64,000 nucleotides of DNA from Candidatus Poribacteria bacterium (GTDB taxonomy: Bacteria > Poribacteria > WGA-4E > WGA-3G). Made by a program: the position numbers and the translations under genes. How positions within the stretch are numbered: the stretch's first letter is position 1; each line of letters opens with the position of its first letter. The notes below the pieces were generated by a model. That model searched no databases. It saw only the letters and a list, made by a program, of their open reading frames with translations, and was not told the DNA's origin. The DNA lies in NCBI GenBank assembly GCA_012270865.1, contig JAAXHL010000014.1, forward strand, positions 26,860 to 90,859. Reading direction: 5' to 3'. This document shows positions 38,916 through 64,000 of this stretch, piece by piece.

Positions 38916-38969
38916 GTGGCGCAATAACGCACTTCGCATTTGGGTGAGTACACCGCAGAATTGCGCCAC
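38916..38969 (-). terminator. 10-bp perfect inverted repeat, possible terminator/insulator after the 82-aa gene
   Basis: GTGGCGCAAT (38916-38925) pairs with ATTGCGCCAC (38960-38969), with a 34-nt loop. On the minus strand it is followed by TTGTATATT. Weak as a classical intrinsic terminator. Confidence 0.35.
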
Positions 38970-39017
38970 TACGAACCAGATTTCTGTTCACGAGAAACGG
39001 TTATTCAGAAATAGTGT

Positions 39018-39266: not shown

Positions 39267-39313
39267 TTCTTCTGTTCTCCTTTCGCTTTTTGATAAAAAT
39301 TATACCACATTTT

Positions 39314-41041: not shown

Positions 41042-41071
41042 GTTCTTCAGGATGTGACATCTGTTTTATCG

Positions 41072-41835: not shown

Positions 41836-41867
41836 AATTTGATTAACGCGTCAAATTTTAATTTAAC

Positions 41868-42302: not shown

Positions 42303-42354
42303 TTTTTATCGGTGCTTCGGAATACACTGCTTTTGAATAACAGCGTCTATTGTG

Positions 42355-43155
42355 CTAAAGATTCGCTTTGATGTAATTAACAGCGTTTTTGAAGATCGCG
42401 AGTCCGTCACCTTCTTCAGTCGTCGTGTCTTGCGTTTGTGCAAACCGAGTCCAGCGGGGGTGATTCCATTTCGTTAGGAACCGTTCCGGGTGTGGCATCA
42501 AGCCGAAGATCCTACCCGTCGTGTCACAGATACCAGCGATCTCAGCATCCGAACCGTTCGGATTCTTCGGATATTCACTCTCAGTATATCGAAACACGAC
42601 TTGATTCTTCGCTTCTAATTCAGCCAACACATCTGCGGGTGCAGTGAACCGTCCCTCAGCGTGTGCGACGGGGAGATAGATACTCGGTTTGATGCCTTTC
42701 GTAAAGACACACGGACTCTCTTGTGTCTCTAAATCTACCCATCGACACTCAAACTTTGCGGAGGTGTTCATGGCGAGCGTCGCGCGCTGCGTCATCTCTG
42801 AAGCACCGTTGTTAGATGTAGACACGCCGGGTAACAAACCCGTACGGACAAGCACTTGGAAGCCGTTGCATATACCGATAACCAGTTTACCGTCCGCAAC
42901 GAATTGGTTCAGCGCATCTGTTAGTTTGTGTTTCATCTCAACGGCTAACAGGATACCGGCGGAGATGTCGTCGCCGTAGGAGAAACCACCCGGAATCGCG
43001 AGGATCTGATAGTCGGATAGGTTAACTTTACCGGAGATGAGGTTTTGGATATGGACTAACGCGGTCTTCGCACCAGCGAACTGGAACGCGGTCTCCGTTT
43101 CTGCGTCGCAGTTAGTCCCTGCAGTTCGTAAGATGAGTACTTTAGGTTGCGTCAT
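42355..43155 (-). CDS. purQ: phosphoribosylformylglycinamidine synthase, glutaminase subunit
   Basis: Motifs GGFSYGD, GICNGFQ (catalytic Cys) and MPHPER. Confidence 0.92.
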   Translation of the reverse strand: MTQPKVLILRTAGTNCDAETETAFQFAGAKTALVHIQNLISGKVNLSDYQILAIPGGFSYGDDISAGILLAVEMKHKLTDALNQFVADGKLVIGICNGFQVLVRTGLLPGVSTSNNGASEMTQRATLAMNTSAKFECRWVDLETQESPCVFTKGIKPSIYLPVAHAEGRFTAPADVLAELEAKNQVVFRYTESEYPKNPNGSDAEIAGICDTTGRIFGLMPHPERFLTKWNHPRWTRFAQTQDTTTEEGDGLAIFKNAVNYIKANL

Positions 43156-43195
43156 TTTTATCCTCTATAAATATAACACACGTCTTGCTAAAAAG

Positions 43196-45616: not shown

Positions 45617-45687
45617 TATTTACGCGTCGTCTTTTTGAAGAGATTTACTGCAAATCATTTTGATTGTTATCATATCACAATGTTGGT

Positions 45688-46086
45688 TTAGACAGTGGCC
45701 CGAATTTCCGATGGCAGTGCACTTTTGAAATCTCTGAAAATATCACGAAGTTTTATCGCTATATCGCTAATTGTTCCTTCAGCACCGAGACTAAGCATTT
45801 CCATTTTTTCAGTTGCTGTATGGGCGGTTTTGTAGTAAATACAATATGTGAAACGATAAGAACGGAACCAACTGTCTACATCTACGACTGAAATTTCGCC
45901 TTTAAATCCTAAAACTACCATTTTAACCATGTATTCAGCCAAGGGTGGTCTTAAATGAGTTAATAACAATTCCTCGTAAAGAACGCAGTTAATTTCTACT
46001 AATGACCAATCTATAGCAAATTCTTTCGCTTCTTCTTTCAGAATTTGTCCAAATTTCTTGTCAACAACAACATTTATAGTTTCCAT
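45688..46086 (-). CDS. hypothetical protein (AT-rich orphan)
   Basis: 132-aa ORF. Its start overlaps the stop of the upstream gene by 1 nt (TAATG). No motif recognised. Markedly AT-rich: line 45961-46020 has 18/60 G+C by hand count. Confidence 0.4.
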   Translation of the reverse strand: METINVVVDKKFGQILKEEAKEFAIDWSLVEINCVLYEELLLTHLRPPLAEYMVKMVVLGFKGEISVVDVDSWFRSYRFTYCIYYKTAHTATEKMEMLSLGAEGTISDIAIKLRDIFRDFKSALPSEIRATV

Positions 46087-46907
46087 TATTCCTTAAATGA
46101 AGCAGTAACCCGCGGGATGCTCTCTTCGCAGGCGAAGCGTTCAATACTGGATGCGCCGACGAAGCCGACGGTGTCCGTCTTTTCGTTGATAAACGCCGCC
46201 TCCGGTGCTTTTGAGATGGGACCGCCGTGCGAGAGACAGATGACGTTTGGGTTCACGGATTGTGCAGCGTCACATATCTCTTGGACACGGACTGCCGCAT
46301 CTTCGAGCGTGAAAGCGGTTTCCGCACCGATCGTACCACCGATCGTCGTCCCCATGTGCGCGATGATTACGTCCGCACCGACTTTTGCCATCTGCTCGGA
46401 TTCTTCAGGGTTAAAGACGTAGACAATCGTGAAAAGGTCCATCTCATGCGCAATGCCGATTGTCTCGACCTCTTTGTAGAAACCCATCCCTGTCTCTTCA
46501 AGCGTTACCCTGAAAGTGCCGTCAATCACACCGACAGTTGGGAAGTTATTCACACCATCAAAACCGACATCGCGAACCTGTTTGAGGAAGTTGCTCATCC
46601 GGCGTGTCGGGTCGGTGCCGTTAACGCCAGCGATAACGGGGGTCTCTTGGACGACGGGTAGCACCTCGCGCTCCCCCATCTCCATGACGATAGCGTTCGC
46701 ATCACCGTAAGCCAAGAGTCCTGCACAAGAACCGAACCCTGACATCCGATAGCGACCGGAGTTGTAAATTACGATCAGGTCTGCCCCGCCGCGTTCTGCG
46801 AATTTCGCTGTGATACCTGTTCCAGCACCGACAGCCAACAAATGTTTTCCTTGATCCAATTCTGCTCTCAATCGTCCTAAAACGTCATCTCGTCTATAAT
46901 CCGGCAT
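46086..46907 (-). CDS. phosphoenolpyruvate-hydrolase-like TIM-barrel protein (Tm-1 C-terminal-domain family)
   Basis: Motifs ...GAGTGITAKFAERGGADLIVIYNSGRYRM..., NFPTVG and ...IIAHMGTTIGG..., as I remember for the PEP_hydrolase/UPF0261-partner family. Confidence 0.65.
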   Translation of the reverse strand: MPDYRRDDVLGRLRAELDQGKHLLAVGAGTGITAKFAERGGADLIVIYNSGRYRMSGFGSCAGLLAYGDANAIVMEMGEREVLPVVQETPVIAGVNGTDPTRRMSNFLKQVRDVGFDGVNNFPTVGVIDGTFRVTLEETGMGFYKEVETIGIAHEMDLFTIVYVFNPEESEQMAKVGADVIIAHMGTTIGGTIGAETAFTLEDAAVRVQEICDAAQSVNPNVICLSHGGPISKAPEAAFINEKTDTVGFVGASSIERFACEESIPRVTASFKE

Positions 46908-47080
46908 ATTTTAATTTTCCTTGCGGTTAAATAACATGGTTTGAGATTTGACATGCTTTTCTTGAATCCGCTCTCCATTTCATTACGAGCTGCGTTCTTG
47001 ATGTTGTGAAGAGCGGATTGATTTAATCAGAAATTTCTTACTGACAGCCGAAAGCCGACTGCTGACAGCCATTCTAATGG
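46908..47080. repeat. shared upstream leader cassette (copy 2) plus heptad run
   Basis: 46909-46932 and 46965-46991 match the trpF upstream region. A 10-bp inverted repeat aatccgctct/agagcggatt is present. Heptads ctgacag ccgaaag ccgactg ctgacag at 47041-47068. Confidence 0.8.
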
Positions 47081-48475: not shown

Positions 48476-48611
48476 AGTTAAGTTCTCCTTTTTTAATGGT
48501 TATAAGTTAGAATAGTTATCAGTCGTCAGTCAAGAGCGGTTGGGTTCACCAAATAGTGTTAGGTTACAAGGATACCCTCTTAACTGAAAACTGTTAACTG
48601 ATAACTGACGA
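48476..48611. repeat. heptad-periodic palindromic intergenic element
   Basis: Left arm gttatcagtcgtcagtcaagag. Right arm ctcttaactgaaaactgttaactgataactgacgact. Confidence 0.75.
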
Positions 48612-50984: not shown

Positions 50985-51539
50985 ATGTCTGTACTTACAC
51001 AAGTTTTTATGCAAGGCGCGGTGAACGGACAAGGATTACGCGATATCAAACCGCCGCTGGAGGTACCTGAGAGCCTACTCCTGTATATGCTCGGTGCTGT
51101 GGTGATACTCGGACTTATCGCTGCGTCGGTAGGGTTCTATCTCCGAAAACGGCACCAAACCATAGCCGTATCTGAAGATGAAGGGGTAAACCTCCCGTTA
51201 CCGCATGAGGTGGCATACCAACGGTTGAAAGCGATTGAGGCATCGGATCTGCTTGCGCGTGGTGATATGGAGACGTATCACACACAAGTTGCACACACAC
51301 TCCGGGAATATATCAGTGCCAGATATAGGATCCCTGCGTTAGAATTAACAACGACAGCACTGCGTCAAGCGATGTCGCGTGCCGAGATAGGCGCAGAATA
51401 TATTGATCGGATTCAGCAGGTACTTGCCAATTGTGATATGGTAAAATTCGCAACCTATCAGCCACAAGTTTCGGAAGCGTCCGCGCGTATCGTTGCCGCG
51501 CGTTGGATCGTTGACGCAACGAAGGCTTCGGTCTCCTAA
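50985..51539 (+). CDS. DUF4381-like single-TM protein
   Basis: Pattern ...LRDIKPPLEVP... followed by one TM segment and then a helical domain. This family usually accompanies MoxR/DUF58/BatA loci. Confidence 0.5.
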   Translation: MSVLTQVFMQGAVNGQGLRDIKPPLEVPESLLLYMLGAVVILGLIAASVGFYLRKRHQTIAVSEDEGVNLPLPHEVAYQRLKAIEASDLLARGDMETYHTQVAHTLREYISARYRIPALELTTTALRQAMSRAEIGAEYIDRIQQVLANCDMVKFATYQPQVSEASARIVAARWIVDATKASVS

Positions 51540-51809
51540 ATACCGATGCCGACAAAAATCAAAAAAAGCACAGAAAGTTGTTTTGGAATACGAACCTCCA
51601 AAAATTAATTAAAATGTTGACACAATTTGAAATATAGTATATTTTTAATTCAGTCTTTATAGTCGTGCATCTGTGAAAATATGGATTTGGATGATATATA
51701 AATCATAGAATCGGTCTTTGCGATATGGATTGAAATGAAGACTACAAAATTAGAACGAATTTATAGGTTTCCTATGTAAAATATGAGCCATAGCAAGGAG
51801 GGAAATAAC

Positions 51810-52247
51810 GTGTCATTAGAACACAAAGTACTCCTCACTATACCGATGTACCCTGATATGGAACTTGCCGCAGCGAAAACCGCCTCTGTTCTCGCAGAAC
51901 TGATGAATTTTGAGGAGGGACAGGTTGAAGAGATTCAACTCGCAATTATTGAAACCTGCATAAACGCTTTTGAGCATAGCCACAGCGATGATAATGAGGT
52001 CCATATTGAGTTCCTACTTTCTGAGGACCAGTTGCAGTTTAAGATTATAGATCGAGGGGTCGGTATAACCCCGGATATTCTGGACGGTTCCCGTTTACTC
52101 GGGAGTCCAAGTGTACACCCTGATCTGCGCAAACGCGGTAGAGGTCTACAAATTGTTAGAAGCCTAATGGATGAGGTAGATATAGAAAGCAGCTCGAACG
52201 GTACAACTGTTAGCGTCATCAAAAGAAAGAGTAGGAGAACTGCCTAA
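51810..52247 (+). CDS. anti-sigma-factor-type serine kinase (RsbW/SpoIIAB-like HATPase)
   Basis: N-box IETCINAFEH, G1 IIDRGVGI, G2 RGRGLQIVRSLMD. AAGGAGG lies 8 nt before GTG 51810. Confidence 0.8.
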   Translation: MSLEHKVLLTIPMYPDMELAAAKTASVLAELMNFEEGQVEEIQLAIIETCINAFEHSHSDDNEVHIEFLLSEDQLQFKIIDRGVGITPDILDGSRLLGSPSVHPDLRKRGRGLQIVRSLMDEVDIESSSNGTTVSVIKRKSRRTA

Positions 52248-52418
52248 ACGTTATGCCGTTTTGCCCTATCCGTAGCGCAATTTTGCGTTCGGGATCGGTT
52301 GTTTAGAGTCCCGCGTTCAAAGGACGACTCTCAGCGACAACCTTTTCTACATACCCTCTTTAGGTTATAGGGGACAGTTTGCATTCCATATTCAGAGTTT
52401 AAAAAGGAGGTAAGCACT

Positions 52419-52763
52419 TTGCTAAACAAATTTGATATTCAAATCCGCGAAGCACAGGAACACGCGGTGATTGAAACGGCTGGATACCTGAATGATGCCC
52501 TCGGCGAAGAACTTTCTGCTAAAGCGCGGGAACTCATTCAGAACGGTCACACACAGTTGGTTATCAACCTTGAAAAAACAACGCTTATTAATAGCATCGG
52601 TATATCCATACTTATTGAAATCATAGAAGCACTCGAGGAACGTCAAGGCACCTTGAATTTCTGTGGATTGTCTGCTACACAAGAACGCACTTTTCGGATG
52701 ATGGCACTTGCAAAATACGCCGGTATCTACCCAGATGAAGAATCCGCAATTGCGAATCTATAA
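52419..52763 (+). CDS. STAS-domain anti-anti-sigma factor (RsbV/SpoIIAA-like)
   Basis: 114 aa. ...LVINLEKTTLINSIGISILIE... contains the phosphorylatable-Ser context (N-S-I-G). AAGGAGG lies 8 nt before the TTG start. Confidence 0.8.
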   Translation: MLNKFDIQIREAQEHAVIETAGYLNDALGEELSAKARELIQNGHTQLVINLEKTTLINSIGISILIEIIEALEERQGTLNFCGLSATQERTFRMMALAKYAGIYPDEESAIANL

Positions 52764-52917
52764 GTTTTGTTTCCGAAGCAAATTTAATTCGGTTGTCCAT
52801 TAAGATCGGTTTTTTGCAAATTTTGTGGCGTGTGTTTAGAAGACTTTTACTCGTACCTTTTGACCTCAGCAATCATTAATATAAAAAATTAGAAACGAAT
52901 TTCTGGAATATAATATT

Positions 52918-54855
52918 ATGAAAGACCCGAGCAAGTCATTAGGCGTTAATTTGCAAACGCATAAAACGCAAAGCACTGCTGAACAGACGATGGAGCGGCT
53001 GATCTTCAGTCTATCCGAGTTGGAAAATTTGGGGCAAACATTAATCTCAGGACATACGAATTTCAATCATTCAAGCAAAACTTATCTCCGTATCACGCTC
53101 GGTACCTTGCAAATTCGACGCGGCGCAATACTGCGTTACCACTCGACGCAGCAAAACCTTGATGTCGTTGCAGTAACACCTGATGAGGTATTCCCGTCAA
53201 TCCCTGTTGAACCGGACGAGCTCACCGCTTTGCTACAACACGCATTCATCGAAAACGCCGCGCCACCCGACCCGCTTAAGCAATTCTTTGATCGGAGTGC
53301 CAAACTTGCCGAGATAATAGATATACATCTCTGGGTTCCCCTAAAAATTCAAGACGAATTTTTAGGGATGATTGGTCTCGGTAAATTCTTGGCGAGAGAT
53401 ACGTTAGAGGCATGGGAAAAGGAGTTACTGACGACGCTCGCACACCAAATATCGATTGCGATTGCATACTCGCAGATGGTCGAAGGTATTCAAAGCGAAA
53501 AGTTCCGCCTATTTATGCTGGCAGAGAGTGCACCGCAGATTTGCCAACTTCTGCAACCTGAAGAAGCAGCGGAACAGGTCGTGCAACAAGCCGTCTCGCT
53601 CCTTGATGCAAACGTCGGTGCCCTAATGCTCACGAACACCGATCAACAAGAACTTGAGATGCACTATGCGTTTCCTGAAACCTTGCTCGAACAGACGACA
53701 GATTCAGACAGCGCGAATGGACACCTCATTCCGTACAGCGAAGAGGCACCTGTCTCCGAAGCTTTGACCTCCGTAGATATGCTGAAATCTGTAGTTACGG
53801 AAGGTCTCCCGGGACACTGTCCACCGGAGTCTGATACATTCTTCGGGGGCAGGAACTTGATGGCTGTTCCGATTCCCGGACGCGATGGCGACATCTTAGG
53901 GATTGTTGTTGTTGGCGATAAAGAGGAACGCGGTGGTAGTATCACCGCCTTCACTGATGAAGATGTTATCTTGCTCGATTCTTTCGCGAAACAGGCAGGT
54001 GTCGCAATTGAGAACGCACGTCTGCATCAGGAAGCACTCGAAGCACGTCAACTCCAAGCTGAAATGGAAGAGGCACGCAAGATTCAAGTGAACCTTATTC
54101 CTGACATGCTCCCAGACATTCCGGGATACGAGGTCGCAGGACATTATGAACCGCGGGGACCCGTCGGCGGCGACTATTATGATTGTATCGCTTTACCTAC
54201 TGGACGTTGGGGGTTGGCGATTGCGGATGTCTCCGGAAAAGGGATGCAAGCCGCACTCCTCATGGCAACTTTACGCGCCGGCCTCATCTCCGAATTATCA
54301 CGCGTCCGAAACATAGATACAGAAGATATGGAGCAGGAAACAGCCACACATGAACCGTTGTATGCCGAAATCGCTGATATGGCTATGACGCTTAATTCGC
54401 TCCTTTATGCCAGTGGGACAGAGGAAAAATATGCCACGTTCTTCTACAGCCACCTTAATCCAGAAACCGACACACTTACAACGCTCAATGCAGGACACAA
54501 CCCGCCCTTGCTCGTTAGGAAAGATGGCACTTACAAGTGGTTAGGTGAAGATGTTGGCGGTATCCCGCTCGGAATGTTTCCAAACGATATGGTTACAAAC
54601 ATTGCCGAGTACGAAGCCGAACATGTTCAACTCATTAGCGGTGATGTCGTTGTATATTATACAGACGGTGTCACAGAAACTGTTAATGTAGAAGATGATT
54701 ATTACGAAGAAGAACGACTGGTCGAAGCATCTATAGCGTGTAAAGATGAAGATGCCGAGGGAATCCGATCATCACTTCATAAGGCAGTCATGGATTTTCA
54801 GGGTGAAGCAGACCAGTTTGATGATCTCACACTGCTTATTTTAAGAAAGACATAG
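52918..54855 (+). CDS. GAF-GAF-PP2C (SpoIIE/RsbU-type) phosphatase
   Basis: Two GAF-like regions. PP2C motifs GGDYYD, IADVSGKG and YTDGVTE. Confidence 0.85.
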   Translation: MKDPSKSLGVNLQTHKTQSTAEQTMERLIFSLSELENLGQTLISGHTNFNHSSKTYLRITLGTLQIRRGAILRYHSTQQNLDVVAVTPDEVFPSIPVEPDELTALLQHAFIENAAPPDPLKQFFDRSAKLAEIIDIHLWVPLKIQDEFLGMIGLGKFLARDTLEAWEKELLTTLAHQISIAIAYSQMVEGIQSEKFRLFMLAESAPQICQLLQPEEAAEQVVQQAVSLLDANVGALMLTNTDQQELEMHYAFPETLLEQTTDSDSANGHLIPYSEEAPVSEALTSVDMLKSVVTEGLPGHCPPESDTFFGGRNLMAVPIPGRDGDILGIVVVGDKEERGGSITAFTDEDVILLDSFAKQAGVAIENARLHQEALEARQLQAEMEEARKIQVNLIPDMLPDIPGYEVAGHYEPRGPVGGDYYDCIALPTGRWGLAIADVSGKGMQAALLMATLRAGLISELSRVRNIDTEDMEQETATHEPLYAEIADMAMTLNSLLYASGTEEKYATFFYSHLNPETDTLTTLNAGHNPPLLVRKDGTYKWLGEDVGGIPLGMFPNDMVTNIAEYEAEHVQLISGDVVVYYTDGVTETVNVEDDYYEEERLVEASIACKDEDAEGIRSSLHKAVMDFQGEADQFDDLTLLILRKT

Positions 54856-55007
54856 GAATGGTTAACAGTTAACAGTTAACAGTTAACAGTTACAAGAGGT
54901 TTTGGAGAGTAGGGGCTGGGTTACCCAGCCCTTACAAAAAACTGAAAGATTTTTTTCATAGAAAAAAATCGTACTGAAAACTGATAACTACTGATGAGAG
55001 GTTACAG
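54856..55007. repeat. heptad-periodic palindromic intergenic element
   Basis: gttaaca x4 plus gttacaa at 54861-54895. GC hairpin gggctgggttacccagccc. Module actgaaagatttttttcatagaaaaaaatcgtactgaaaactgataactact at 54941-54992. Confidence 0.85.
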
Positions 55008-55994
55008 ATGCAACAGAATACAGCAGTGGGGCGCGCGTTTTTAGACCCGACAATCCTTGCGCGAATCGGGAATCTTGAGTTAATTGCCAGATACGTCGTT
55101 GAAGGGTTTATCTCAGGGCTGCACAAGAGTCCATATCACGGATTTTCTGTCGAATTCTCACAATACCGTCAATATATGCCCGGAGACGACATGAAACATA
55201 TAGACTGGAAAGCCTACGCTCGTACCGACAGATACTATATTAAGCAGTTTGAGGAGGAGACGAACCTCAACTGTTACCTGCTCTTAGATACAAGCGAATC
55301 TATGATGCATCCAACAGATACGGAAACCGAGACAGAGGATACAAGCGTTTCCGAAGGGAATAGACCGAGACAACCGATACTTACAAAATTGAAATACGCA
55401 AGTTACCTCATCGCATCGCTCTCTTATTTTATGGCGAAGCAACGGGATGCTGTCGGGTTCGCCTATTTCGATGACACACTTCATCAGTACCTTCCAGCAC
55501 GCAGCAGTACATCACACTTACACTCAATCCTACTGACGCTGGAGACGCTACAGACAACAAAAAACACTCGGATGGGAACGCCGCTTCATCAGATCGCTGA
55601 ACGCCTTACGAAACGTGGATTGGTACTTTTCATCTCAGACCTGTACGACGAGAACCATGAGGAAGTCATTGCCGGATTGGAGCACCTACGTTATGAAGGA
55701 CACGAGGTCATCGTCTTTCATGTTCTTGCGAAACAGGAACTTGAGTTTAATGATTTTGAGAGGGGACGGAGTTCAGAAGCACTTATCCGTTTTATTGATG
55801 CCGAAAACGACGCTGAGATTATCACAACGCCACAAGCGATTCAAGAGAGTTATCTTAGCAACTTCAACACGTTTCTGGAGAACTATAGGCTCGCACTTCG
55901 GCAAGCGGATATTGATTACAACATAATAACAACAGCGACTCCGATTGATTTCGCACTCGCTTCTTACCTCGCCAAACGGCAAGGAATTTTTTAA
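55008..55994 (+). CDS. DUF58 (vWA-like, MoxR-associated) protein
   Basis: Motifs HKSPYHGFSVEFSQYRQYMPGDDMKHIDWKAYARTDRYYIKQFEEE and LLDTSESM. Confidence 0.85.
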   Translation: MQQNTAVGRAFLDPTILARIGNLELIARYVVEGFISGLHKSPYHGFSVEFSQYRQYMPGDDMKHIDWKAYARTDRYYIKQFEEETNLNCYLLLDTSESMMHPTDTETETEDTSVSEGNRPRQPILTKLKYASYLIASLSYFMAKQRDAVGFAYFDDTLHQYLPARSSTSHLHSILLTLETLQTTKNTRMGTPLHQIAERLTKRGLVLFISDLYDENHEEVIAGLEHLRYEGHEVIVFHVLAKQELEFNDFERGRSSEALIRFIDAENDAEIITTPQAIQESYLSNFNTFLENYRLALRQADIDYNIITTATPIDFALASYLAKRQGIF

Positions 55995-56102
55995 ATGGTT
56001 GTCAGTACTCAGTTAACAGTTAACAGTTAAAAGAGGTTTTCGATAGTTCCAAAGTCTCTTAACTGACAACTGAGTACTGTTAACTGATAACTACAAAAAA
56101 AC
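55995..56102. repeat. heptad-periodic palindromic intergenic element
   Basis: Arms 56004-56036 (cagtactcagttaacagttaacagttaaaagag) and 56056-56079 (ctcttaactgacaactgagtactg) are reverse complements apart from a one-heptad length difference. Confidence 0.85.
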
Positions 56103-58253
56103 ATGTTTGGATTAGGCGTTTTAGCCCCCTTATTTGCAGTGGCTGGTGTTATCGGTGCCTCGATTCCGATTATCCTCCATCTACTGAATAGAGAACGCGC
56201 AAGGCAGCTGATATTCAGTACCGTCCGTTTCATCCAGATGTCGCACCAGACGAACGTGAGACGGCACAAATTGAAACGGCTCCTGCTTCTGCTAATGCGT
56301 ATTCTGATGTTAGCACTGCTCGGTTTCGCGTTTGCACGTCCATTTTTCGCCGATTCACTCGCGGTTACACAGAAAACCGGGGGCAAACGCAACGCTGTTA
56401 TTATTCTCGATACGTCCTATAGTATGCAATATGCGGCGGTATTTGAGGATGCGAAAAAAGAGGCAGTCAAAATTTTAGACGGACTTGACGCAGCGGACGC
56501 TGCTTGCCTAATCCTTTCGTCCGATAATGCGCGTGTCGTCGCCCCCCTCGGTTCAGAATTTTCACACATTCGGACAGCATTGAATACAGCAGAAACTACG
56601 AACAATCAGACAGATTATTTGGACGCGCTCCAAAATGCCGATGAGATTCTTGCGGGTATTCCTATCGGTGAAAAACAGGTTTACCTCATTAGTGATATGC
56701 AAAAGCGTGGATGGGAGAACTTCATTGAGACAGATAAACTCAGTGCAGATATCCAAATCAATTTTGTTGATATCCATGTAGAGGAACCGCAGAACCTCGC
56801 GATTACAGGTATTAGTGTGCCGCCAGTTGTTTTGAAAGAACAGAAAGCCTCCCGTTTGGTCGCGCGTGTCCGTAATTTTGGAACCGAATCTGTCGAAAAT
56901 TTGCCGGTTCGCCTCTTTATAGATGATAATGTGATTGATACCGTCGAACTTGATATCGAAGCGGACGACCTTGCGGATGCTGTCTTCAACATTGAGTTTC
57001 AAGACGAAGCGACACATACAGGATGGGTTGAACTACCAGAAGACCGACTCCTTGTTGATAACAAACGGTATTTCACGTTGCAAAGCCTACAGTCGATTAA
57101 AGTCCATGCCGTTCGGGAAAGGGCACGCTCTGTAGGGACTGGGGTATCCAACCCTTACGACGAAACTTTTTTTATTAAAAAGGCGTTAGTCTCAGGCAGG
57201 AACACTGCTGCACGGATTGACTTTACTGAAACCTTCTCGGTGCCAAACGCGGCGACACTTGAACGCGCAGATGTTCTGATCCTTGCCGATGTCGCAGCAT
57301 TATCTTCTGCTGAAGCCGAACGCGTGAAGAACTTTGTCGCGAACGATGGCGGCTTGATTCTGACAGTCGGTGATAACATAGATACCGATACCTATAAACG
57401 GCACCTCGGCGGCGAGGATGGACTCATGCCTTGTGATTTTGTGCAAGCAGTCGGGGACGCATTCAATCGTGATCAATTTCGCGTCATCGCCACAGTACAG
57501 TACGAGCATCCGATTTTCACGCCTTTCAAGGAGCCGAATCACGGAGATTTCGGTAAAGCACGGTTTTACAGGCTCTTTCAAGCTGTCCCGACAAAAGATG
57601 CAACAGTGATCGCTTCCTACGATGACGGCAGCCCTGCTCTCTTTGAAAAACCTTACGGAAATCTTGGACGGGTACTCTGTTTTACCTCAACAATAGATAG
57701 AGAATGGAACGATTTACCGATTCGCGCCGTCTATCTACCATTTCTACATGAATCTATTAAGTATCTTGCCCTTAAAAGTGTGAACACAACACCAGATTAT
57801 CGTATCAACGATAGCGTTGAATTGAAAGTTTTCGACGATGAAGAGGTGTCCGATACTGTGAGACGCAAGGAGATCGCTATCTTCGATCCGAACAACATTG
57901 AAACACGCATGCAGCCCGATGAAAACGCGCCAGAAGGTTCTTCACGAAATAGCATCTTTTACACCGATACGTCGGTTCCAGGCATCTATTCCGCACATCT
58001 ATCTGGTGGAGATACACACTATTTCGTCGTCAATATTGACACATCGGAATCCGATCTTGCAGCACGTGATATAGAGGAACTGACGAGTATGTTGAAAGGT
58101 GCTGCGGAAGAATCGGTTGAGGAGAAACCGAGAGCAGAACTTGTAGCACAATACCGAGAAGATGTTGAGAAAAACCAAAATGCTTGGATGTATCTTATGT
58201 TAGTCGTTTTCGCATTGGCGGTAACAGAGATGTTTCTCGCCAACCGAGTTTAA
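56103..58253 (+). CDS. BatA-N-terminal-domain / vWA protein
   Basis: N-terminal double-TM with ...SIPIILHLLNR. MIDAS motif ILDTSYSM. C-terminal TM segment. 716 aa. Confidence 0.8.
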   Translation: MFGLGVLAPLFAVAGVIGASIPIILHLLNRERARQLIFSTVRFIQMSHQTNVRRHKLKRLLLLLMRILMLALLGFAFARPFFADSLAVTQKTGGKRNAVIILDTSYSMQYAAVFEDAKKEAVKILDGLDAADAACLILSSDNARVVAPLGSEFSHIRTALNTAETTNNQTDYLDALQNADEILAGIPIGEKQVYLISDMQKRGWENFIETDKLSADIQINFVDIHVEEPQNLAITGISVPPVVLKEQKASRLVARVRNFGTESVENLPVRLFIDDNVIDTVELDIEADDLADAVFNIEFQDEATHTGWVELPEDRLLVDNKRYFTLQSLQSIKVHAVRERARSVGTGVSNPYDETFFIKKALVSGRNTAARIDFTETFSVPNAATLERADVLILADVAALSSAEAERVKNFVANDGGLILTVGDNIDTDTYKRHLGGEDGLMPCDFVQAVGDAFNRDQFRVIATVQYEHPIFTPFKEPNHGDFGKARFYRLFQAVPTKDATVIASYDDGSPALFEKPYGNLGRVLCFTSTIDREWNDLPIRAVYLPFLHESIKYLALKSVNTTPDYRINDSVELKVFDDEEVSDTVRRKEIAIFDPNNIETRMQPDENAPEGSSRNSIFYTDTSVPGIYSAHLSGGDTHYFVVNIDTSESDLAARDIEELTSMLKGAAEESVEEKPRAELVAQYREDVEKNQNAWMYLMLVVFALAVTEMFLANRV

Positions 58254-58485
58254 TTATGATTGGTTAACAGTTAACAGTTAACGGTTAACAGTTAAGATGC
58301 TCGCAGTGAGAGTTTGTGGCAGTCCCGTTTGCTGTCCCCGCCACAAACAGTTTTCAGTTATCAGTTACAAGAGGCTTGAGATAATCCCAGGGGAAACACC
58401 CAAGCAAAACACATCTCTTTCTGATAACTGAAAGATTTTTCGCAGAAAAATCGTACTGAAAACTGATAACTACTAAGGAGAAACC
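58254..58485. repeat. heptad-periodic palindromic intergenic element (carries both internal modules)
   Basis: gttaaca-type heptads at 58263-58297. Hairpin module gtttgtggcagtcccgtttgctgtccccgccacaaac at 58312-58348. Module ctgataactgaaagatttttcgcagaaaaatcgtactgaaaactgataactact at 58431-58474. Confidence 0.85.
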
Positions 58486-59403
58486 GTGAACTTGGAAGCA
58501 AACGCATCCATTGAGGTGCCAAAAATTGTATCCGATGAACAGGTCCAGTTTTTTGTGGACAACGGCTATCTCGTTGTTCCCGACCTGCTTTCGATTGATG
58601 AAATAGAGGAACTACGGCAGGACACTGTCACACTTGCGAAAGGTGGACATCCGTGCGACAGCCTGAAACCGCTTCCTAACGATATTAGCGATGTTGAAGC
58701 CATCAGCCGTATCCTTTGCATCCATCAACCGCATTTCGTGAGTCCAATCATTGAGAAATATGTCAAGCACCCGAAGATCTGCGGCACCTTGAGCCAGATA
58801 ACAGCTGCGCACCTTCCACACTGGGATGGAAGTGTCAAGTGTATGCAGTCTATGCTCTTCGTAAAACCGCCGAATTTTCAGGGACAGGCGTGGCATCAGG
58901 ACGAAATTTACATTCCGACGCGCGACCGTTCCTTAATTGGCGCGTGGATAGCGATGGACGACGCTACCGTCGAAAATGGATGTCTCTGGGTTCTCCCGGG
59001 TTCACACCGCCGAGGTTATCTCTATCCCCAGAAATCACACGAGAACCCAGATGAATTTGATTTTGCGGAAGAGAGCTTCGGCTTTGATGACAGTGATGAG
59101 GTGCCGGTCGAAGTTAAAACAGGGACACTGGTTTTCTTCAACGGGTATCTACTACACCGCTCACGTAAGAACCGTGGCAGTACCTTCCGTCGGGTTTTAG
59201 TGAATCATTACTGTAACGCATGGTCGTTGTTACCTTGGTCCATCCGAGAAGGTGAACGTCCAGCGAGTGCTGATCGGCGATGCATTGTTCCGGTATCAGG
59301 TGTTGATCCTTACGCGTGGAAAGGTTATGACGCGCCGCCTAAAAACGTTTCGTTGCGTACCTGCAAAGCCGTCCAAGAAATGGAGGTATCAGATGGTAGT
59401 TGA
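58486..59403 (+). CDS. phytanoyl-CoA dioxygenase (PhyH) family oxygenase
   Basis: Motifs WHQDE (H-x-D) and a distal ...FFNGYLLHRSRKN. Confidence 0.8.
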   Translation: MNLEANASIEVPKIVSDEQVQFFVDNGYLVVPDLLSIDEIEELRQDTVTLAKGGHPCDSLKPLPNDISDVEAISRILCIHQPHFVSPIIEKYVKHPKICGTLSQITAAHLPHWDGSVKCMQSMLFVKPPNFQGQAWHQDEIYIPTRDRSLIGAWIAMDDATVENGCLWVLPGSHRRGYLYPQKSHENPDEFDFAEESFGFDDSDEVPVEVKTGTLVFFNGYLLHRSRKNRGSTFRRVLVNHYCNAWSLLPWSIREGERPASADRRCIVPVSGVDPYAWKGYDAPPKNVSLRTCKAVQEMEVSDGS

Positions 59404-59686
59404 TCCTTTCGACGCAGCCCGCGAGCCAAAACCGACCAGTGATAATCATGATAATCACGATGAATCACAAGAATCACAGGTCAAAATTGCGGAACTCAGA
59501 CGAACACTGGAGACGATGTTCGATCGGATTGCGGCTGGTGAAGATATATTAGAACAGTTGGATCGCATTAACGCTCTACATCAGCAGGTTGCACCAGCTG
59601 CCCCGAAAATGTTGTGTCATTATCTTGAACGTAAAAGTTATACGAAGGCATTAGACCTACTTAAAACAGTTAACAGTGGCCAGTGA
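59393..59686 (+). CDS. hypothetical 97-aa protein
   Basis: GGAGG lies 5-6 nt before ATG 59393. Overlaps the PhyH stop by 11 nt. Acidic N-terminus followed by helical ...KIAELRRTLETMFDRIAAGEDILEQL.... The longer ORF from 59252 overlaps PhyH in another frame. Confidence 0.45.
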   Translation: MVVDPFDAAREPKPTSDNHDNHDESQESQVKIAELRRTLETMFDRIAAGEDILEQLDRINALHQQVAPAAPKMLCHYLERKSYTKALDLLKTVNSGQ

Positions 59687-59782
59687 CCAGTTAAGAGGTT
59701 TCTTGTGGCAGTAACAGGAAAGGTAAACACCACAAGGTTTTAACTGGTAACTGGAAACTGGTTACTGATACAAAGGAGAAAG
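59687..59782. repeat. heptad-periodic palindromic intergenic element
   Basis: ccagttaagagg ... cttgtggcag..caccacaagg ... ttttaactggtaactggaaactggttactg. Confidence 0.7.
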
Positions 59783-60541
59783 ATGGCAAGAGAGGATGGA
59801 CGTCGGTCAGATGAAATGCGACCCGTGACGATCAAACGACATTATATCAAACACGCGGAGGGTTCAGTTCTCATAGCAACTGGAGATACGCACGTTATCT
59901 GTACTGCCTCCGTTATCGATTCGCAGCCGCGCTTTATGCGCGACCAACGTATTAAAGGTAAGGGTTGGGTAACCGCCGAATACTCTATGTTACCACGTTC
60001 TACTTCCGAACGGATGCAACGTGAGATTACGCGTGGTGCCCCGAGCGGCAGAACACAAGAGATACAACGTCTCATCGGACGTTCTCTACGCGCTGCCGTA
60101 GATTTACATGCTTTAGAAGAACAGACCATCTGGATCGATTGCGATGTCATACAAGCAGATGGCGGGACACGTACCGCAGCCATCACAGGCGCGTTCATCG
60201 CACTCTGGGACGCTTGCCAAGCACTCGTCAAACGTAAAAAGATCGAAAACTTCCCTATCACTGATAACATCGCTGCAACCAGTGTCGGACTCGTTGAAGG
60301 TGAAGCACTCTTAGATCTCTGCTATACCGAAGATTCAACGGCGGATGTCGATATGAATATCGTGATGACGGGCAGTGGACAGTTCATAGAAATACAAGGC
60401 ACAGCGGAGGAGAAGCCGTTTTCGCGGGACGATTACGATCAAATGTTAGACCTTGCTGTCGGCGGTATTACGCAACTTGTCCGACTACAGAACCGGCTGA
60501 TGTTGGAGAACTTAGATGAAGCTTGTACTAGCGACGCATAA
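59783..60541 (+). CDS. rph: ribonuclease PH
   Basis: Motifs [13 protein letters not shown], ...[11 protein letters not shown]... and [15 protein letters not shown]. Confidence 0.93.
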
Positions 60542-61154
60542 CCAAGGAAAAGTTCGAGAACTGACAAAGATGCTTCACAAACGCGCGGGGACCAGCGAAC
60601 CGATAGAAGTCATCTCTTTAGAGAACTACCCTAAAGCACCGGAAGTCGTGGAGGACAGACAGACGTATCTGGAAAATGCCGTCAAAAAAGCATCCGTTAT
60701 CGCAGAATATACAGGTCATCTAACGCTTGCCGACGATGCAGGGTTAGAAGTAGAAGCACTTAACGGTGCCCCAGGTATCCATTCTAAACGTTGGGCAGGG
60801 GACGACGCTACAGATGCAATCCGAATTGCGAAACTCCTGCAAGCACTCGATGGTATCCCTAATCGGCGTGCCCGCTTCGTCGCAGCGATCGCAGTTGTAC
60901 ATCCGGATTCTGATCCCTTGACCAAGAACGCGCGCACATTTTTAAACATCGGAAATCGCGTTCTTGGTCAAGGTGTCCTCGGGGTCTGTGAGGGACATAT
61001 CCTACATGCACCGAAAGGTGAAAGCGGGTTCGGGTACGATCCGATATTTGTGCCAGACGGTTACGAGCAAACTTTCGCGGAACTCGGAGAAAATATCAAA
61101 AACAAAATTAGTCACAGGGCAAAGGCGTTGCAACAAGCACTCGCCTTGCTTTAA
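60516..61154 (+). CDS. rdgB: non-canonical purine NTP pyrophosphatase (RdgB/HAM1)
   Basis: Motifs [16 protein letters not shown], ...[19 protein letters not shown]..., GFGYDPIF and [10 protein letters not shown]. Confidence 0.9.
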
Positions 61155-61294
61155 TAGTTATTCAAAGTTATAAGTGGTAGGTTATAAGTGGTAGGTTAAG
61201 AGGGTCTTTGGGCTGATTATAGAATAAATGACGGCCACACGTTCTTAACTTATAACTTATAACTTATAACTTATAACCGTAAAAAAAGGATAAA
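61155..61294. repeat. heptad-periodic palindromic intergenic element (GTTATAA/CTTATAA variant)
   Basis: gttataagtggtag x2 at 61167-61194. cttataa x4 at 61249-61276. Confidence 0.85.
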
Positions 61295-61852
61295 ATGGCA
61301 TCACTTAACGATTTACGTAACGGGTTGGTTATCCGACTCAATGAAGCAGTTTATACCATAGTCGATTGTCAGCATGTTAAGCCTGGTAAGGGCAGCGCCT
61401 TCGCACGAACGAAGATCAAACGTGTCACGGATGGTGCCGTCTTAGACCGTACATTCCGCTCCAATGAGACTGTCGAAACCGTCAGACTTATGGATCACCG
61501 GATGCAGTATATGTACCGAGATAGCGATATTTTATGGTTTATGGACAACGAAACTTTTGAGCAACATTCACTTCCGCTGAACCTGCTTGAAGAAAACTTG
61601 AAGTTCCTTAAAGAGGGTGAAACAGTCACCGTCAAAATGGATGGGCAGCTGCCACTTGCGGTGGAACTCCCGAACTTCGTTGAACTTAAAATTGTTGAGA
61701 CCGATCCGGGATTACGCGGTGATACCGTCAGCGGCGGCTCCAAGCGCGCAACACTTGAGACGGGGGGCGTTGTTAACGTTCCACTCTTCGTTCAAAACGA
61801 AACCCTTATCAAAGTTGATACGCGGACCGGAAAATATGTAGAAAGGATATAA
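61295..61852 (+). CDS. efp: elongation factor P
   Basis: Motif ...VKPGKGSAFARTKIK..., 185 aa, three-domain length. Confidence 0.93.
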   Translation: MASLNDLRNGLVIRLNEAVYTIVDCQHVKPGKGSAFARTKIKRVTDGAVLDRTFRSNETVETVRLMDHRMQYMYRDSDILWFMDNETFEQHSLPLNLLEENLKFLKEGETVTVKMDGQLPLAVELPNFVELKIVETDPGLRGDTVSGGSKRATLETGGVVNVPLFVQNETLIKVDTRTGKYVERI

Positions 61853-61986
61853 TGGTTATTGGTTAACAGTTAACAGTACGGTTTTTCTACGAAAAACCTT
61901 TCAGTTATCAGTTTGTGGCGGGGACAGCAAACGGGACTGCCACAAGGGGACTGTTAACTGACAACTGACAACTATTAAAAACAGAA
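61853..61986. repeat. heptad-periodic palindromic intergenic element
   Basis: gttaaca x2 at 61862-61875. cagtacggtttttctacgaaaaacctttcagttatcag. Inverted copy of the 58312-58348 module at 61911-61946. ctgttaa ctgacaa ctgacaa ctattaa at 61951-61978. Confidence 0.85.
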
Positions 61987-62508
61987 ATGCGTCAAGATAA
62001 ATCCAAGGATCAATCTCAATCCGTGGAGCGAGACCATAGTGATGTCCTCGAACTCGTTGAGCAGTTAGCAGAGGTGCTTGACCGTGCTAATCTCACGGAA
62101 GTCCGCATTCGCGACAACGAATTTGAAGTGCAAGTTTCAAGGAATCCCGCTACCTCGGTCGGTATTAACCCGTTTCCATCGCTACAAGCACCGGACATAG
62201 GCACAGCATCCGGGGCTTCAGGTCTACCTGCTGAGCAGACAGATGATAGCGGTAACGCCCAAGAAGGGAGTGCTTATATCAGTGCGCCGATGCCGTCACG
62301 TTTCTATCGCTCTCCTGCGCCCGATGAACCCGCTTTTGTAGAAGTCGGGGACACTGTGAGTGCGGGCGAAGCTGTAGCCGTACTCGAAGTGATGAAGACT
62401 TACAACCCCGTGGAAGCACCCTTTAACTGTGAGATTTTAGAAATTCTTGCTGAAGATGGAGACGCGGTTGAATACTCGCAAGCGTTGTTCCGAGTGAAGC
62501 AGCTGTAG
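61987..62508 (+). CDS. accB: biotin carboxyl carrier protein of acetyl-CoA carboxylase
   Basis: C-terminal biotinyl domain ...VAVLEVMKTYNPVEAP...G.ILEI. Pro/Ala-rich linker. Located upstream of accC. Confidence 0.85.
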   Translation: MRQDKSKDQSQSVERDHSDVLELVEQLAEVLDRANLTEVRIRDNEFEVQVSRNPATSVGINPFPSLQAPDIGTASGASGLPAEQTDDSGNAQEGSAYISAPMPSRFYRSPAPDEPAFVEVGDTVSAGEAVAVLEVMKTYNPVEAPFNCEILEILAEDGDAVEYSQALFRVKQL

Positions 62509-62574
62509 ACGTGATGAACGTCCATAACAGTCCTTTCGGGCAAAAAGTGGGAATCAGGATTGAGAATACAGAAC

Positions 62575-63933
62575 ATGATAAAAAAGATACTCATAGCAAA
62601 TCGCGGAGAAATCGCCGTCCGTATTATCCGAGCATGTAAAGATATGGGGATAAAAACGGTGGCTATCTTCTCAACAGCGGATGAAGAGGCGTTGCACGTT
62701 AAACACGCAGACGAAGCGTACTGCATCGGACCGCCACCATCCACAGAAAGTTACCTCAAATATGCGAATATCGTTGCCGTTGCGGATTTCGCGAACGTCA
62801 ACGCTATCCATCCAGGTGTCGGGTTCCTCGCTGAGGACGCTCAATTTGCTGAAATTTGTGAAGCACACGAGATAAAGTTTATCGGTCCCACGGTCACGAA
62901 TATAGCAACCATGGGGGATAAGGTAAAAGCACGCGAGACCGTGGCAAAAGCAGGTCTAAAACTTGTTCCCGGTAGTCAAGGCGGTAGACGCAGAGGCAGC
63001 AAAAAGGGTACCGTCGATACTACCGAAGAAGCGGTGCAGCTTGCAGAGAAGATAGGCTATCCGGTGGGCATCAAAGCGGTTGCCGGTGGTGGCGGACGTG
63101 GTATCCGAATCGCAGAAAACCGTCCGAGCCTACTAAGCCTTTTCCATACGGCGAAAGCGGAAGGCGAAGCCGCTTTTGGAAACGGGGATGTCTACATCGA
63201 AAAATGGATTGAAGAGGCACGACATATTGAAGTCCAGATTTTAGGAGATACGCACGGAAATGTCGTCCATCTCGGAGATCGTGAATGTTCCATACAACGT
63301 AAACAGCAGAAACTACTTGAGGAAGCACCCGCCGCTTCCATCTCATCTAAACTTCGCTCGGAAATGTGTAAAGCCGCAGCTAAAGCTGCAAAAGCGATCG
63401 GCTACGTAAACGCTGGCACCGTCGAGTTTGTCCTCGATAAAAACGATAACTACTACTTCTTGGAGATGAACACTCGGATTCAGGTCGAACACACTATCAC
63501 GGAATGCATCACCGGTATTGATTTGATTAAAGAACAGATACGACTCGCAATGGGTGAGCATCTCGGATATAGTCAATCTGATATCCAACTCAAAGGACAC
63601 GCCATTGAATGTCGAATCAATGCCGAGGACCCTGCGAACAACTTCATGCCTTCACCGGGTCTGGTAACCGCCTATAATCCGCCCGGCGGTATCGGAATTC
63701 GGGTTGATGGTTACATCTATACCGGTTATACCGTGCCACCGCATTACGATTCGCTCGTGGCGAAACTCATCGCAAGTGGTAGAGACCGAGAGGAAGCGAT
63801 TTCTCGTCTACAACGCGCCTTGTCCGAATTCCAGATTGAAGGCATAAAAACCACAATTCCGCTCTATCAAGACATCCTCCATGATGAACGCTTTCTCAAC
63901 GGCACCATTTTCACGAACTTTTTAGAAAAATGA
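62575..63933 (+). CDS. accC: acetyl-CoA carboxylase biotin carboxylase subunit
   Basis: Motifs MIKKILIANRGEIAVRIIRAC, ...GGGGRGIR... and EMNTRIQVEHTITE. ATG 62575 preferred over TTG 62560. Confidence 0.93.
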   Translation: MIKKILIANRGEIAVRIIRACKDMGIKTVAIFSTADEEALHVKHADEAYCIGPPPSTESYLKYANIVAVADFANVNAIHPGVGFLAEDAQFAEICEAHEIKFIGPTVTNIATMGDKVKARETVAKAGLKLVPGSQGGRRRGSKKGTVDTTEEAVQLAEKIGYPVGIKAVAGGGGRGIRIAENRPSLLSLFHTAKAEGEAAFGNGDVYIEKWIEEARHIEVQILGDTHGNVVHLGDRECSIQRKQQKLLEEAPAASISSKLRSEMCKAAAKAAKAIGYVNAGTVEFVLDKNDNYYFLEMNTRIQVEHTITECITGIDLIKEQIRLAMGEHLGYSQSDIQLKGHAIECRINAEDPANNFMPSPGLVTAYNPPGGIGIRVDGYIYTGYTVPPHYDSLVAKLIASGRDREEAISRLQRALSEFQIEGIKTTIPLYQDILHDERFLNGTIFTNFLEK

Positions 63934-64000
63934 TTTTTAAATGTTCGCGAGGCACTAAGCAGACGATTTCTTCAATTACCGTTCCGGTTTTAGAATCGCA

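Follow-up and report, generated by a model that had tools for sequence, protein, structure and literature searches.

Heptamer repeats paired around a conserved core form a dispersed, probably selfish family of palindromic elements in Candidatus Poribacteria

The window, meaning the whole 64,000-nt stretch of Candidatus Poribacteria DNA analysed here (contig JAAXHL010000014.1, positions 26,860 to 90,859), carries between its genes a family of imperfect palindromic repeats whose arms are tandem heptamers of the short tandemly repeated repetitive (STRR) class. The best explanation, with a probability of about 0.6, is a dispersed family of selfish or neutral elements that exists at the level of DNA; the family is probably selfish. 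The paired architecture, with its lineage-specific 30-nt core and a nested hairpin termed module b, is a variant of a known repeat class and not a new kind of system. Heptamer repeats (STRR, TAACTGA) have been known since 1990, and we know of no accepted origin or function for them. No mention of heptamer repeats in Poribacteria was found in the searchable literature.

The periodicity is strong and strictly intergenic. Tandem Repeats Finder detects period-7 arrays, of 2.3-6 copies, or period-14 arrays in nine gaps of the window (24432-24517, 48581-48608, 54861-54892, 56010-56030, 56061-56096, 58263-58295, 58348-58367, 59741-59767, 61167-61198, 61246-61277, 61862-61877 and 61956-61973). Runs of at least three CAG or CTG at exact 7-nt spacing occur 12 times, all of them within the non-coding 12% of the window outside long open reading frames (ORFs), against a mean of 0.026 +/- 0.16, and never more than 1, when the gaps were shuffled 500 times with dinucleotides preserved. 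At lag 7, identity within the gaps reaches 0.296 (0.265 +/- 0.005 in shuffles); identity peaks at lags 7, 14, 21 and 28 are a property of intergenic DNA only, and coding DNA shows the usual period of 3. The first-pass annotation had reported heptad runs in at least 12 gaps, 12 of them listed, with a fixed CAG/CTG register. Nine of these gaps are strong; those at 7777-7804, 25231-25262 and 47041-47068 are short or degenerate, and 61155-61294 is in an AAG/CTT register instead. The statement that the repeats fill most intergenic gaps was too broad, as a strong element stands in 9 of the 47 gaps of at least 25 nt, with clusters at 23.2-24.5 kb, at 48.5 kb and in six consecutive gaps at 54.8-62 kb. 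All nine lie downstream of a gene, eight in co-directional gaps and one in a convergent gap.

The two arms of an element are reverse complements, as had been proposed, with 77-94% pairing across 16-44 nt, and equally good pairing is reached in several registers at 7-nt distance. Folding into long hairpins is borne out in five gaps (54856-55000, 55995-56102, 59660-59782, 61155-61294 and 61853-61986), whose fold z-scores against shuffles range from -5.0 to -8.4, but 48476-48611 folds weakly (z -1.4).

An origin of the periodicity in chance or faulty assembly is already refuted. Tandem repeats can be mis-built by short-read assemblers, and several short contigs do end within the repeats, which is expected of a dispersed repeat. 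However, seven contigs from independent metagenome assemblies, made from different samples with different assemblers, are 100% identical over 61155-61294 and 61853-61986, and long-read contigs of relatives, 1.6 to 6.7 Mb in length, bear the same element type at the same gaps. The doubts which the first-pass annotation had raised about its own proposal, namely lack of enrichment over shuffled sequence, assembly artefact and absence from the rest of the genome, are answered by the 12 runs against about 0.03 in shuffles, by the identical independent contigs and by a sequencing depth at the elements well above baseline (see below).

Read on either strand, the full element has the form 5'-(A)TAGTTATCAGT-(CAGTNNN)n - ~30-nt core - (NNNACTG)n-ACTGATAACTA(T)-3', with the inverted terminal pair TAGTTATCAG...CTGATAACTA. 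The heptad consensus in Poribacteria sequences is CAGT-T-A-[A/T/C], most often CAGTTAA (43/127), then CAGTTAC, CAGTTGT and CAGTTAT; with CAG fixed by the search, position 4 is T in 87%, position 5 is T in 68% and position 6 is A in 63%. The core starts with AAGAGG and ends with CCTCTT (consensus AAGAGGnTTnnGAnAnTyCCAAnnnCTCTT), and of 22 strict matches, 10 have a core of exactly 30 nt and 16 one of 28-32 nt. The hairpins are A+T-rich, 96 to 232 nt long, and their interiors are a mosaic of modules. Every copy in the window and in its orthologs has the CAGT arm 5'. Of the arrays (3-7 copies) in 434 kb of loci sampled independently, 88 are hairpin-oriented, none is reversed and 30 lack a partner. 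Since the opposite arrangement would give an equally good fold, hairpin stability alone does not explain this polarity; it is consistent with common descent. Intergenic DNA has 24 copies of the palindromic hexamer GTTAAC, part of the heptad GTTAACA, in 7.5 kb (3.2 per kb), and coding DNA has 6 in 56.5 kb (0.11 per kb).

The nine strong elements (E1 to E9) and three weak candidates are as follows; no strand is assigned to any of them.

E1, 23225-23391: convergent gap; left arm CCGTCAG x2; core AAGAGGTTTTGATTAACAGAAAACCCTCTT at ~23276-23305, followed by a module-b-like hairpin GGTTTTTCTACGAAAAAAAACC; right arm CTGATCG-CTGACGG-CTGATAG-CTGACAA; z 2.7, fold z -4.2.
E2, 24343-24523: between two minus-strand genes (aldo/keto reductase and 3-keto-disaccharide hydrolase); left arm with module b at 24374-24404 in reverse orientation and heptads at 24432-24461; right arm (AACTGTTAACTGAC)3.3 at 24472-24517; arms of unequal length; z 5.8.
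E3, 48476-48611: between sulfatase and PhyH genes on the minus strand; left arm TAGTTATCAGTCGTCAGTCAA; core AAGAGC...CCCTCTT; right arm of four TAACTGA-type units at 48580-48608; z 3.6, with the weak fold given above.
E4, 54856-55007: PP2C > DUF58; left arm (GTTAACA)4.6 at 54861-54892; AAGAGG at 54895; loop with module c, a REP-like palindrome, at 54909-54935; module b at 54942-54976; right heptads at 54973-54995; fold z -6.4.
E5, 55995-56102, the minimal copy: DUF58 > BatA; left arm 55998-56030; 30-nt core AAGAGGTTTTCGATAGTTCCAAAGTCTCTT at 56031-56060; right arm 56061-56096; fold z -5.3.
E6, 58254-58485: BatA > PhyH; left heptads 58263-58295; module a 58312-58348; heptads 58348-58367; extended core 58369-58419; module b 58428-58458; right heptads 58455-58475.
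E7, 59667-59782: small ORF > RNase PH; left arm 59667-59694; loop with a TTGTGGC...CCACAA hairpin; right arm 59740-59770; fold z -5.0.
E8, 61155-61294: Ham1/RdgB > EF-P; AAGT/ACTT variant register; left arm (GTTATAAGTGGTAG)2.3 at 61167-61198; core TTAAGAGG...TTCTTAA; right arm (CTTATAA)4.6 at 61246-61277; fold z -8.4.
E9, 61853-61986: EF-P > AccB; left heptads 61855-61877; module b in reverse orientation at 61874-61904; module a at 61911-61947, reverse complement of the copy at 58312; right arm 61950-61975; fold z -5.3.
Weak degenerate candidate, 7739-7804: divergent gap; CAGTTGTCAGT ... CCGATAA-TAGATAC-CGGATAA-CGGACAA; z 2.2 for the whole gap.
Weak short hairpin, 25228-25264: divergent gap; about two heptads per arm, GCCGTCAGCCAT...GCTGACTGCTGATGG; z 0.7.
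Weak candidate, 47041-47068: four 7-nt units CTGACAG-CCGAAAG-CCGACTG-CTGACAG without a partner arm; z 1.4.

The host of these elements is not a cyanobacterium, as the gene content had already indicated. The best-named BatA homologs all belong to Candidatus Poribacteria (names as given by NCBI). The genome is associated with sponges or corals, and the metagenome runs that contain window sequence bear the labels coral reef, sponge or marine. Next to the elements stand ordinary genes (SpoIIE/PP2C, DUF58, BatA/VWA, PhyH, RNase PH, Ham1/RdgB, EF-P, AccB and AccC, together with sulfatase, aldo/keto reductase and 3-keto-disaccharide hydrolase). The window was compared gap by gap with five syntenic contigs, whose BatA proteins are 93%, 91%, 90%, 86% (L135) and 79% (L136) identical to its own. 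Added to these was L074 (Candidatus Poribacteria bacterium SB0668_bin_37), a match of the heptamer search that is colinear with window 61243-63926 at 77% nucleotide identity.

Within the genome the elements are dispersed. Logan unitigs break at every element, and unitig depth in the element bins is 4-25x the baseline of ~19 (250 at 54861-55147, 480 at 58305-58591 and 149 at 61749-62035). Hundreds of contigs fit the elements partly and continue into foreign flanks. An identical 24-nt core string stands at three non-orthologous loci, namely E5 of the window, the locus shared by L148, L153 and L214, and L205, the flanks of the others being unrelated to the window.

Between relatives the elements turn over at every level. 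The first-pass expectation that stem length changes by whole heptads is confirmed: the window has four GTTAACA units versus three in L132, and a strain ~97% identical lacks 7 nt at 56002 and has ACTGTTA added behind 61949. In L135, the left arm of the Ham1 > EF-P element has 12 heptads versus ~4 on the right, which indicates that each arm changes on its own. Whole elements come and go. Between the small ORF and RNase PH, L133, L134, L135 and L136 have an empty gap of 12 nt, while the window and L132 have an element there, their two copies differing in loop and modules. The EF-P > AccB element is found in the window, L133, L134 and L074 and is wholly missing in L132. Interiors are remodelled too: E6 of the window is the L132 copy with ~80 nt more in its left arm, and the E4 loop holds module c in the window but is plain in L132. 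In one locus of two strains (L214, MKWU01006014.1; L148, MKWU01023000.1), the flanks are orthologous on both sides and the core with module b is inverted in place. A 27-nt indel that seemed to separate the Ham1 genes of the window and L003 was at one point taken for a population polymorphism but is just a scaffold N-run.

Small hairpin modules are nested within the arrays. Module b consists of CTGAAAG-[6-8 bp stem, 3-4 nt loop]-CGTACTG, a hairpin insert of ~21 nt that always stands in register within ACTG-type heptads; the window copies lie at 54942-54976, 58428-58458, 61874-61904 and 24374-24404. A scan of 86 metagenome stretches, 434 kb in total, yields 100 copies. The first stem pair of these is A-T in 58, G-C in 39 and non-pairing in 3 (Fisher p 3.5e-24), and the L134 copy has a wholly different stem, GGGAACG/CGTTCCC; the stem variation is compensatory. 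The module is found in Poribacteria-type loci only, in comparison with mostly cyanobacterial loci, and its outward side faces a gene start in 38 cases and a gene end in 39. Module a (GTTTGTGGC-19 nt-GCCACAAAC) has two copies in opposite orientations, 58312-58348 and 61911-61947. Module c (GTAGGGGCTGGGTTACCCAGCCCTTAC) is a 27-nt REP-like palindrome (GTAGGG...CCCTAC), where REP stands for repetitive extragenic palindromic sequence.

Copies also occur inside genes. The second copy of module c, in frame within BatA, is the following.

57132-57158, plus strand: module c, GTAGGGACTGGGGTATCCAACCCTTAC, encoding SVGTGVSNPY.

This copy replaces six codons (SVGTGVSNPY for S-GSRYQT) in the BatA of the window, P0003 and P0005 and is absent from P0002 (94% identical) and P0008. 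The BatA gene of L135 (10001-12163) holds an in-frame mini-hairpin of four heptads, CCAGTAACCAGTGGCCAGTTACCAGTAACTGGAAACT. The Ham1 genes of L132 (14269-14934) and L135 (14223-14879) hold a whole heptad hairpin in frame near the N-terminus, encoding KSYQLPVTSYQKETFHRKPLLTGN... At E7, a claimed element at 59687-59782 is indeed present and folds, but its left arm begins inside the preceding small ORF, where it overwrites the last codon and stop (...LLKTL* becomes ...LLKTVNSGQ*). The conserved AAGAGG...CCTCTT core, the fixed arm polarity, the nested hairpin modules and these in-frame copies had all been missed by the first-pass annotation.

Two further changes in coding sequence stand beside these. 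A 58-nt palindrome with perfect 17-bp arms (60916-60973) lies in frame within Ham1/RdgB, and encodes 19 residues; five orthologs lack it and read 15 residues there. The window has one copy of it, and a unitig links position 60927 to heptads elsewhere in the genome. The small ORF before E7 (59393-59686) encodes 97 aa here and 79 aa in relatives, having gained DNHDNHDESQESQ from 9-nt tandem repeats at 59440-59478, and its C-terminus VNSGQ* is now read from heptads.

In several relatives the heptad hairpins are occupied by a transposable element of the miniature inverted-repeat type (MITE). A MITE of ~165 nt, with terminal repeats TAGGACTTACGCA / TGCGTAAGTCCT of 12-13 nt and flanking duplications of 5-6 nt, sits preferentially within them in L133 (8560-8730 and 9780-9950), L135 (16264-16551) and L136 (9145-10000), and not in the window. 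Beside the heptad hairpin between Ham1 and EF-P, L136 carries six tandem copies of a ~110-nt unit (14933-15500).

These observations trace the life of a repeat family at the level of DNA. The family spreads to new sites by copying, the same core being found at unrelated loci, and propagation probably relies on a trans-acting activity or on gene conversion. Its copies come to lie after a stop codon and ahead of the following ribosome-binding site, and now and then within the reading frame of a gene; the family probably behaves as selfish or neutral DNA, tolerated where harm is small. Once in place, each arm lengthens and shortens by whole heptads, as is typical of slipped-strand mispairing, and the asymmetric interior is able to turn around at its site, probably through recombination of the inverted arms. 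Whole elements are gained, lost and remodelled between relatives whose BatA proteins are 79-94% identical, and smaller hairpin modules, as well as MITEs in relatives, nest within the arrays. Side effects on messenger RNA (mRNA) are probable, because every copy is co-transcribed within operons as an imperfect stem of 30-45 bp, which might expose the transcript to a cut of the RNase III type or shield its 3' end. RNase III cuts the transcripts of Correia elements, the likeliest outcome at the RNA level for the present elements too, and both REP and Correia stems are associated with cleavage or 3'-end protection.

Several findings weigh against this explanation. A hairpin of some kind is kept at the Ham1 > EF-P and EF-P > AccB gaps down to 77% nucleotide identity, which could mean a selected function and not tolerance. 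No target-site duplications or clean empty-versus-filled junctions are definable among the relatives, whose flanks have diverged, and no transposase or other mobilising gene is linked to the elements in the 64-kb window or in ~110 kb of syntenic loci. An avoidance of promoter regions also finds no backing in the window, whose four divergent gaps are too few (p 0.57).

The persistence of hairpins to 77% identity is the main point in favour of function, and the corresponding functional reading is rather unlikely on the whole. It takes the elements as selected intercistronic or 3'-UTR (untranslated region) RNA hairpins in polycistronic mRNAs, where they would be processed by RNase III or RNase E, block 3'-exonucleases, terminate transcription partially or insulate translation; that heptad number would tune the stoichiometry of operon genes is a similarly doubtful extension. 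The position of all nine strong elements downstream of genes, in eight co-directional gaps and one convergent gap, agrees with it, as do the sparing of ribosome-binding site and start codon, the great stability of the folds and the survival of a hairpin in the same gaps of relatives to 77-79% identity despite sequence turnover. Transcript stabilisation or translational coupling has moreover been proposed for cyanobacterial STRR hairpins (PMC2670836). However, the two strands are hardly distinguishable: fold energies summed over 24 elements are -990.9 in sense and -982.0 in antisense, with 77 and 76 G.U pairs, and module b has no preferred orientation relative to genes. A sign of sense-strand RNA selection in the G.U pairs of the 61155-61294 stem was dropped on this basis. 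Intrinsic terminators were also considered and rejected, since no U-tract follows the hairpins, the 3' flanks of the outer hairpins are A-rich, and the region 47-64 kb has 11 terminator-like sites against 16.7 expected. Rfam 15 at the gathering score gives 0 matches in the whole window. Close relatives can lack the element in the same gap with no visible compensation, the interior is invertible in place, and copies lie inside ORFs.

A mobile origin under a dedicated enzyme is quite unlikely in its classical form, in which MITEs, or paired REP hairpins (REPINs), are moved by a REP-associated tyrosine transposase (RAYT) or an IS200-family Y1 transposase that recognises the hairpin. The defined inverted termini, the element gained in a 12-nt gap, the same core at unrelated loci, the in-frame copies within ORFs, the GTAG start of the nested palindrome module c and the presence of an IS200/IS605-family Y1 transposase in a relative all speak for such a process. 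The Y1 gene, however, lies at L135 1-209 beside the sulfatase gene, adjacent to no element and with no counterpart there in the window, and matches the IS200/IS605 equivalog transpos_IS200 (NCBIfam NF033573, E 1e-16) and no other family at E <= 0.01. The RAYT gene whose search had been suggested is absent from every locus examined, and no other transposase stands in the window or, in those loci, beside any element. Lengths of 96-232 nt, mosaic interiors and the lack of any visible target-site duplication speak against it, and heptad arrays of the same polarity occur in cyanobacteria without the Poribacteria core. A role of the CAGT/ACTG heptads as iterated sites for a sequence-specific DNA- or RNA-binding protein, in a regulon-like post-transcriptional network as MacGregor proposed for TAACTGA, is very unlikely. 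The strongly conserved heptamer core, the forward (TAACTGA-type) arms that end a few to ~30 nt upstream of start codons and the same heptamer in distant phyla could be explained in this way, and deletion of heptamer repeats altered recO and recF reporter output in Nostoc (bioRxiv 10.1101/2022.06.06.494920). Yet no candidate binding protein was found, and an inverted partner is always present, so half of the arms face gene ends. The flanking genes (PP2C, DUF58, BatA, PhyH, RNase PH, Ham1, EF-P, AccB, sulfatase and aldo/keto reductase) are functionally unrelated, one element is in the AAGT register without CAG, and copy number and presence vary among close relatives.

The selfish or neutral repeat family favoured here is closest to the cyanobacterial STRR sequences, and the likeness noted from the start is upheld. 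The heptamers of cyanobacteria, including STRR3 with CAACAGT, were reportedly described by Mazel et al. in 1990. Among the matches listed for the exact 21-mer (CAGTTAA)3 in bacterial and archaeal contigs with one genome per species, more than 119, by far the most are in filamentous cyanobacteria (among them Microcoleus, Kamptonema, Fischerella, Calothrix, Nostoc, Rivularia, Scytonema and Tychonema). The same matches include about a dozen Bacteroidota, two Ignavibacteria, two Poribacteria and single cases in Pyrinomonadaceae, Halobacteroidaceae, Ardenticatenaceae, Roseiflexaceae, Myxococcales and others. Phages as a vector of the heptamer were considered and set aside, the 21-mer occurring only twice in 2.9 million viral contigs. 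In mostly cyanobacterial loci, CAGTCAA (= STRR3 CAACAGT) is the second commonest heptad, and CAGTTAT (= TAACTGA) is also frequent. The Poribacteria arrays share with STRR the 7-nt unit in short tandem arrays, the intergenic position at many loci, the CAGTNAA heptamer class and strain variation by whole units, and some cyanobacterial arrays form hairpins too; one example lies between hupS and hupL, its function unknown (PMC2670836). The differences are the host phylum, since the original definition concerns (filamentous) cyanobacteria, and the pairing. The polarity of 88 to 0 in Poribacteria contrasts with mostly unpaired cyanobacterial arrays (144 unpaired, 43 hairpin-oriented and 4 reversed), and the AAGAGG...CCTCTT core and module b are absent from the mostly cyanobacterial loci. 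The junction of heptad and AAGAGG core is found 10.6 times per 100 kb in Poribacteria loci versus 0.7 in others, a 15-fold difference, and the few matches outside Poribacteria look like chance.

The TAACTGA system is built from the same heptamer read in another register (TAACTGA = CAGTTAT). In marine Beggiatoaceae, 15 cyanobacteria and 5 Bacteroidetes, direct repeats of TAACTGA lie upstream of start codons and close to them, with 7-nt indels between strains and copies in ORFs, and no mechanism was found (MacGregor 2015, PMC4679880). In 'Maribeggiatoa', there are 169 direct repeat sets and one inverted (PMC4679880). The heptamer occurs in the right arms here, with 10 intergenic copies versus 1 coding copy, and TAACTGA-type units lie 5-30 nt upstream of starts, mixed with other heptads. 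The two systems have in common sets split by related heptamers, 7-nt strain indels, copies in the ends and interiors of ORFs and a patchy distribution over phyla. In contrast, the Poribacteria arrays are inverted pairs around a core, Poribacteria are outside the published host list, and unlike in Beggiatoaceae there is no start-proximal bias of module b, arms facing gene ends being equally many (38 vs 39). In Nostoc, heptamer repeats affect reporter expression (bioRxiv 10.1101/2022.06.06.494920).

Module b has its nearest counterpart in small dispersed repeats (SDR). Elhai et al. in 2008 reportedly found SDR nested within heptamer arrays of Nostoc punctiforme. By that description, module b resembles them as a ~21-nt hairpin in heptamer arrays with compensatory stems, and other nested palindromes and copies within genes are further likenesses; module b differs in being found in Poribacteria-type loci only.

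The heptad elements are not REP sequences, bacterial interspersed mosaic elements (BIMEs) or REPINs, not classical MITEs and not terminators. They share with the REP, BIME and REPIN elements of Enterobacteria and Pseudomonas an intergenic, palindromic, highly repeated nature and co-transcription in operons between a stop and the next start, but only the nested module c has a GTAG head and a G+C-rich stem. The suggested REP/BIME likeness therefore fails for the heptad hairpins themselves, which are A+T-rich, internally tandem-repetitive, 96-232 nt long against 20-40 nt for a REP palindrome, and without such a head, with no RAYT in the window or the fetched loci (~110 kb of syntenic DNA). Bacterial MITEs that fold in mRNA include the Correia elements of Neisseria, ERIC, and Nezha of Anabaena/Nostoc (PMC3184786). 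With these the heptad elements have in common non-autonomy, inverted termini, insertion next to genes, in-frame fusion to ORFs and filled/empty polymorphism in relatives. They differ in lacking a fixed length, a detectable target-site duplication and a parent insertion sequence and in changing their arms by slippage, whereas the true MITE of L133, L135 and L136 has 12-13 nt terminal repeats and 5-6 nt duplications.

The finding itself reveals no new mechanism, and its significance lies in breadth and resolution. The same heptamer builds a structured, copy-propagated palindromic element in an uncultivated symbiont phylum, which widens the host range of the class. The comparative series is rich, with relatives at 99% to 75% protein identity, several on megabase contigs, and in it slippage, gain and loss, inversion and in-frame insertion are all directly visible. 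The elements also break short-read assemblies and alter annotated proteins both at their ends and inside, which makes them relevant to the annotation of metagenome-assembled genomes. A speculative and quite improbable extension is that CAGT-polarised arrays and ~21-nt nested hairpins are the footprint of a single, horizontally transferred machinery, an enzyme or binding protein that makes, extends or inserts them; equally conjectural is its activity in filamentous cyanobacteria, Beggiatoaceae, Bacteroidota, Poribacteria and a few other lineages. If such a machinery existed, phylogenetic profiling could find it, given many closed, closely related Poribacteria genomes, and the 35-year-old question of what STRR sequences are would be addressed.

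Two observations concern the window apart from its repeats. The metagenome contig ERZ27298222 k141_940524 (L001, L127) is a mosaic relative to it, being 100% identical over 51295-64000, 98.8% over 31980-46152 and ~87% over 25691-31534, which reflects either strain recombination or a chimeric assembly. The 'helicase island' at 33331-42302 contains no heptad element, as the first-pass annotation had stated. Its genes encode two helicases of the UvrD type that carry GIY-YIG domains, a PemK toxin and a Gp49/HTH_37 pair, its G+C content is low (0.40 at 36-38 kb), and a perfect tandem array of a 15-nt unit (3.1 copies) lies at 38801-38847. The island has the look of an acquired one, with a defence or toxin-antitoxin role.

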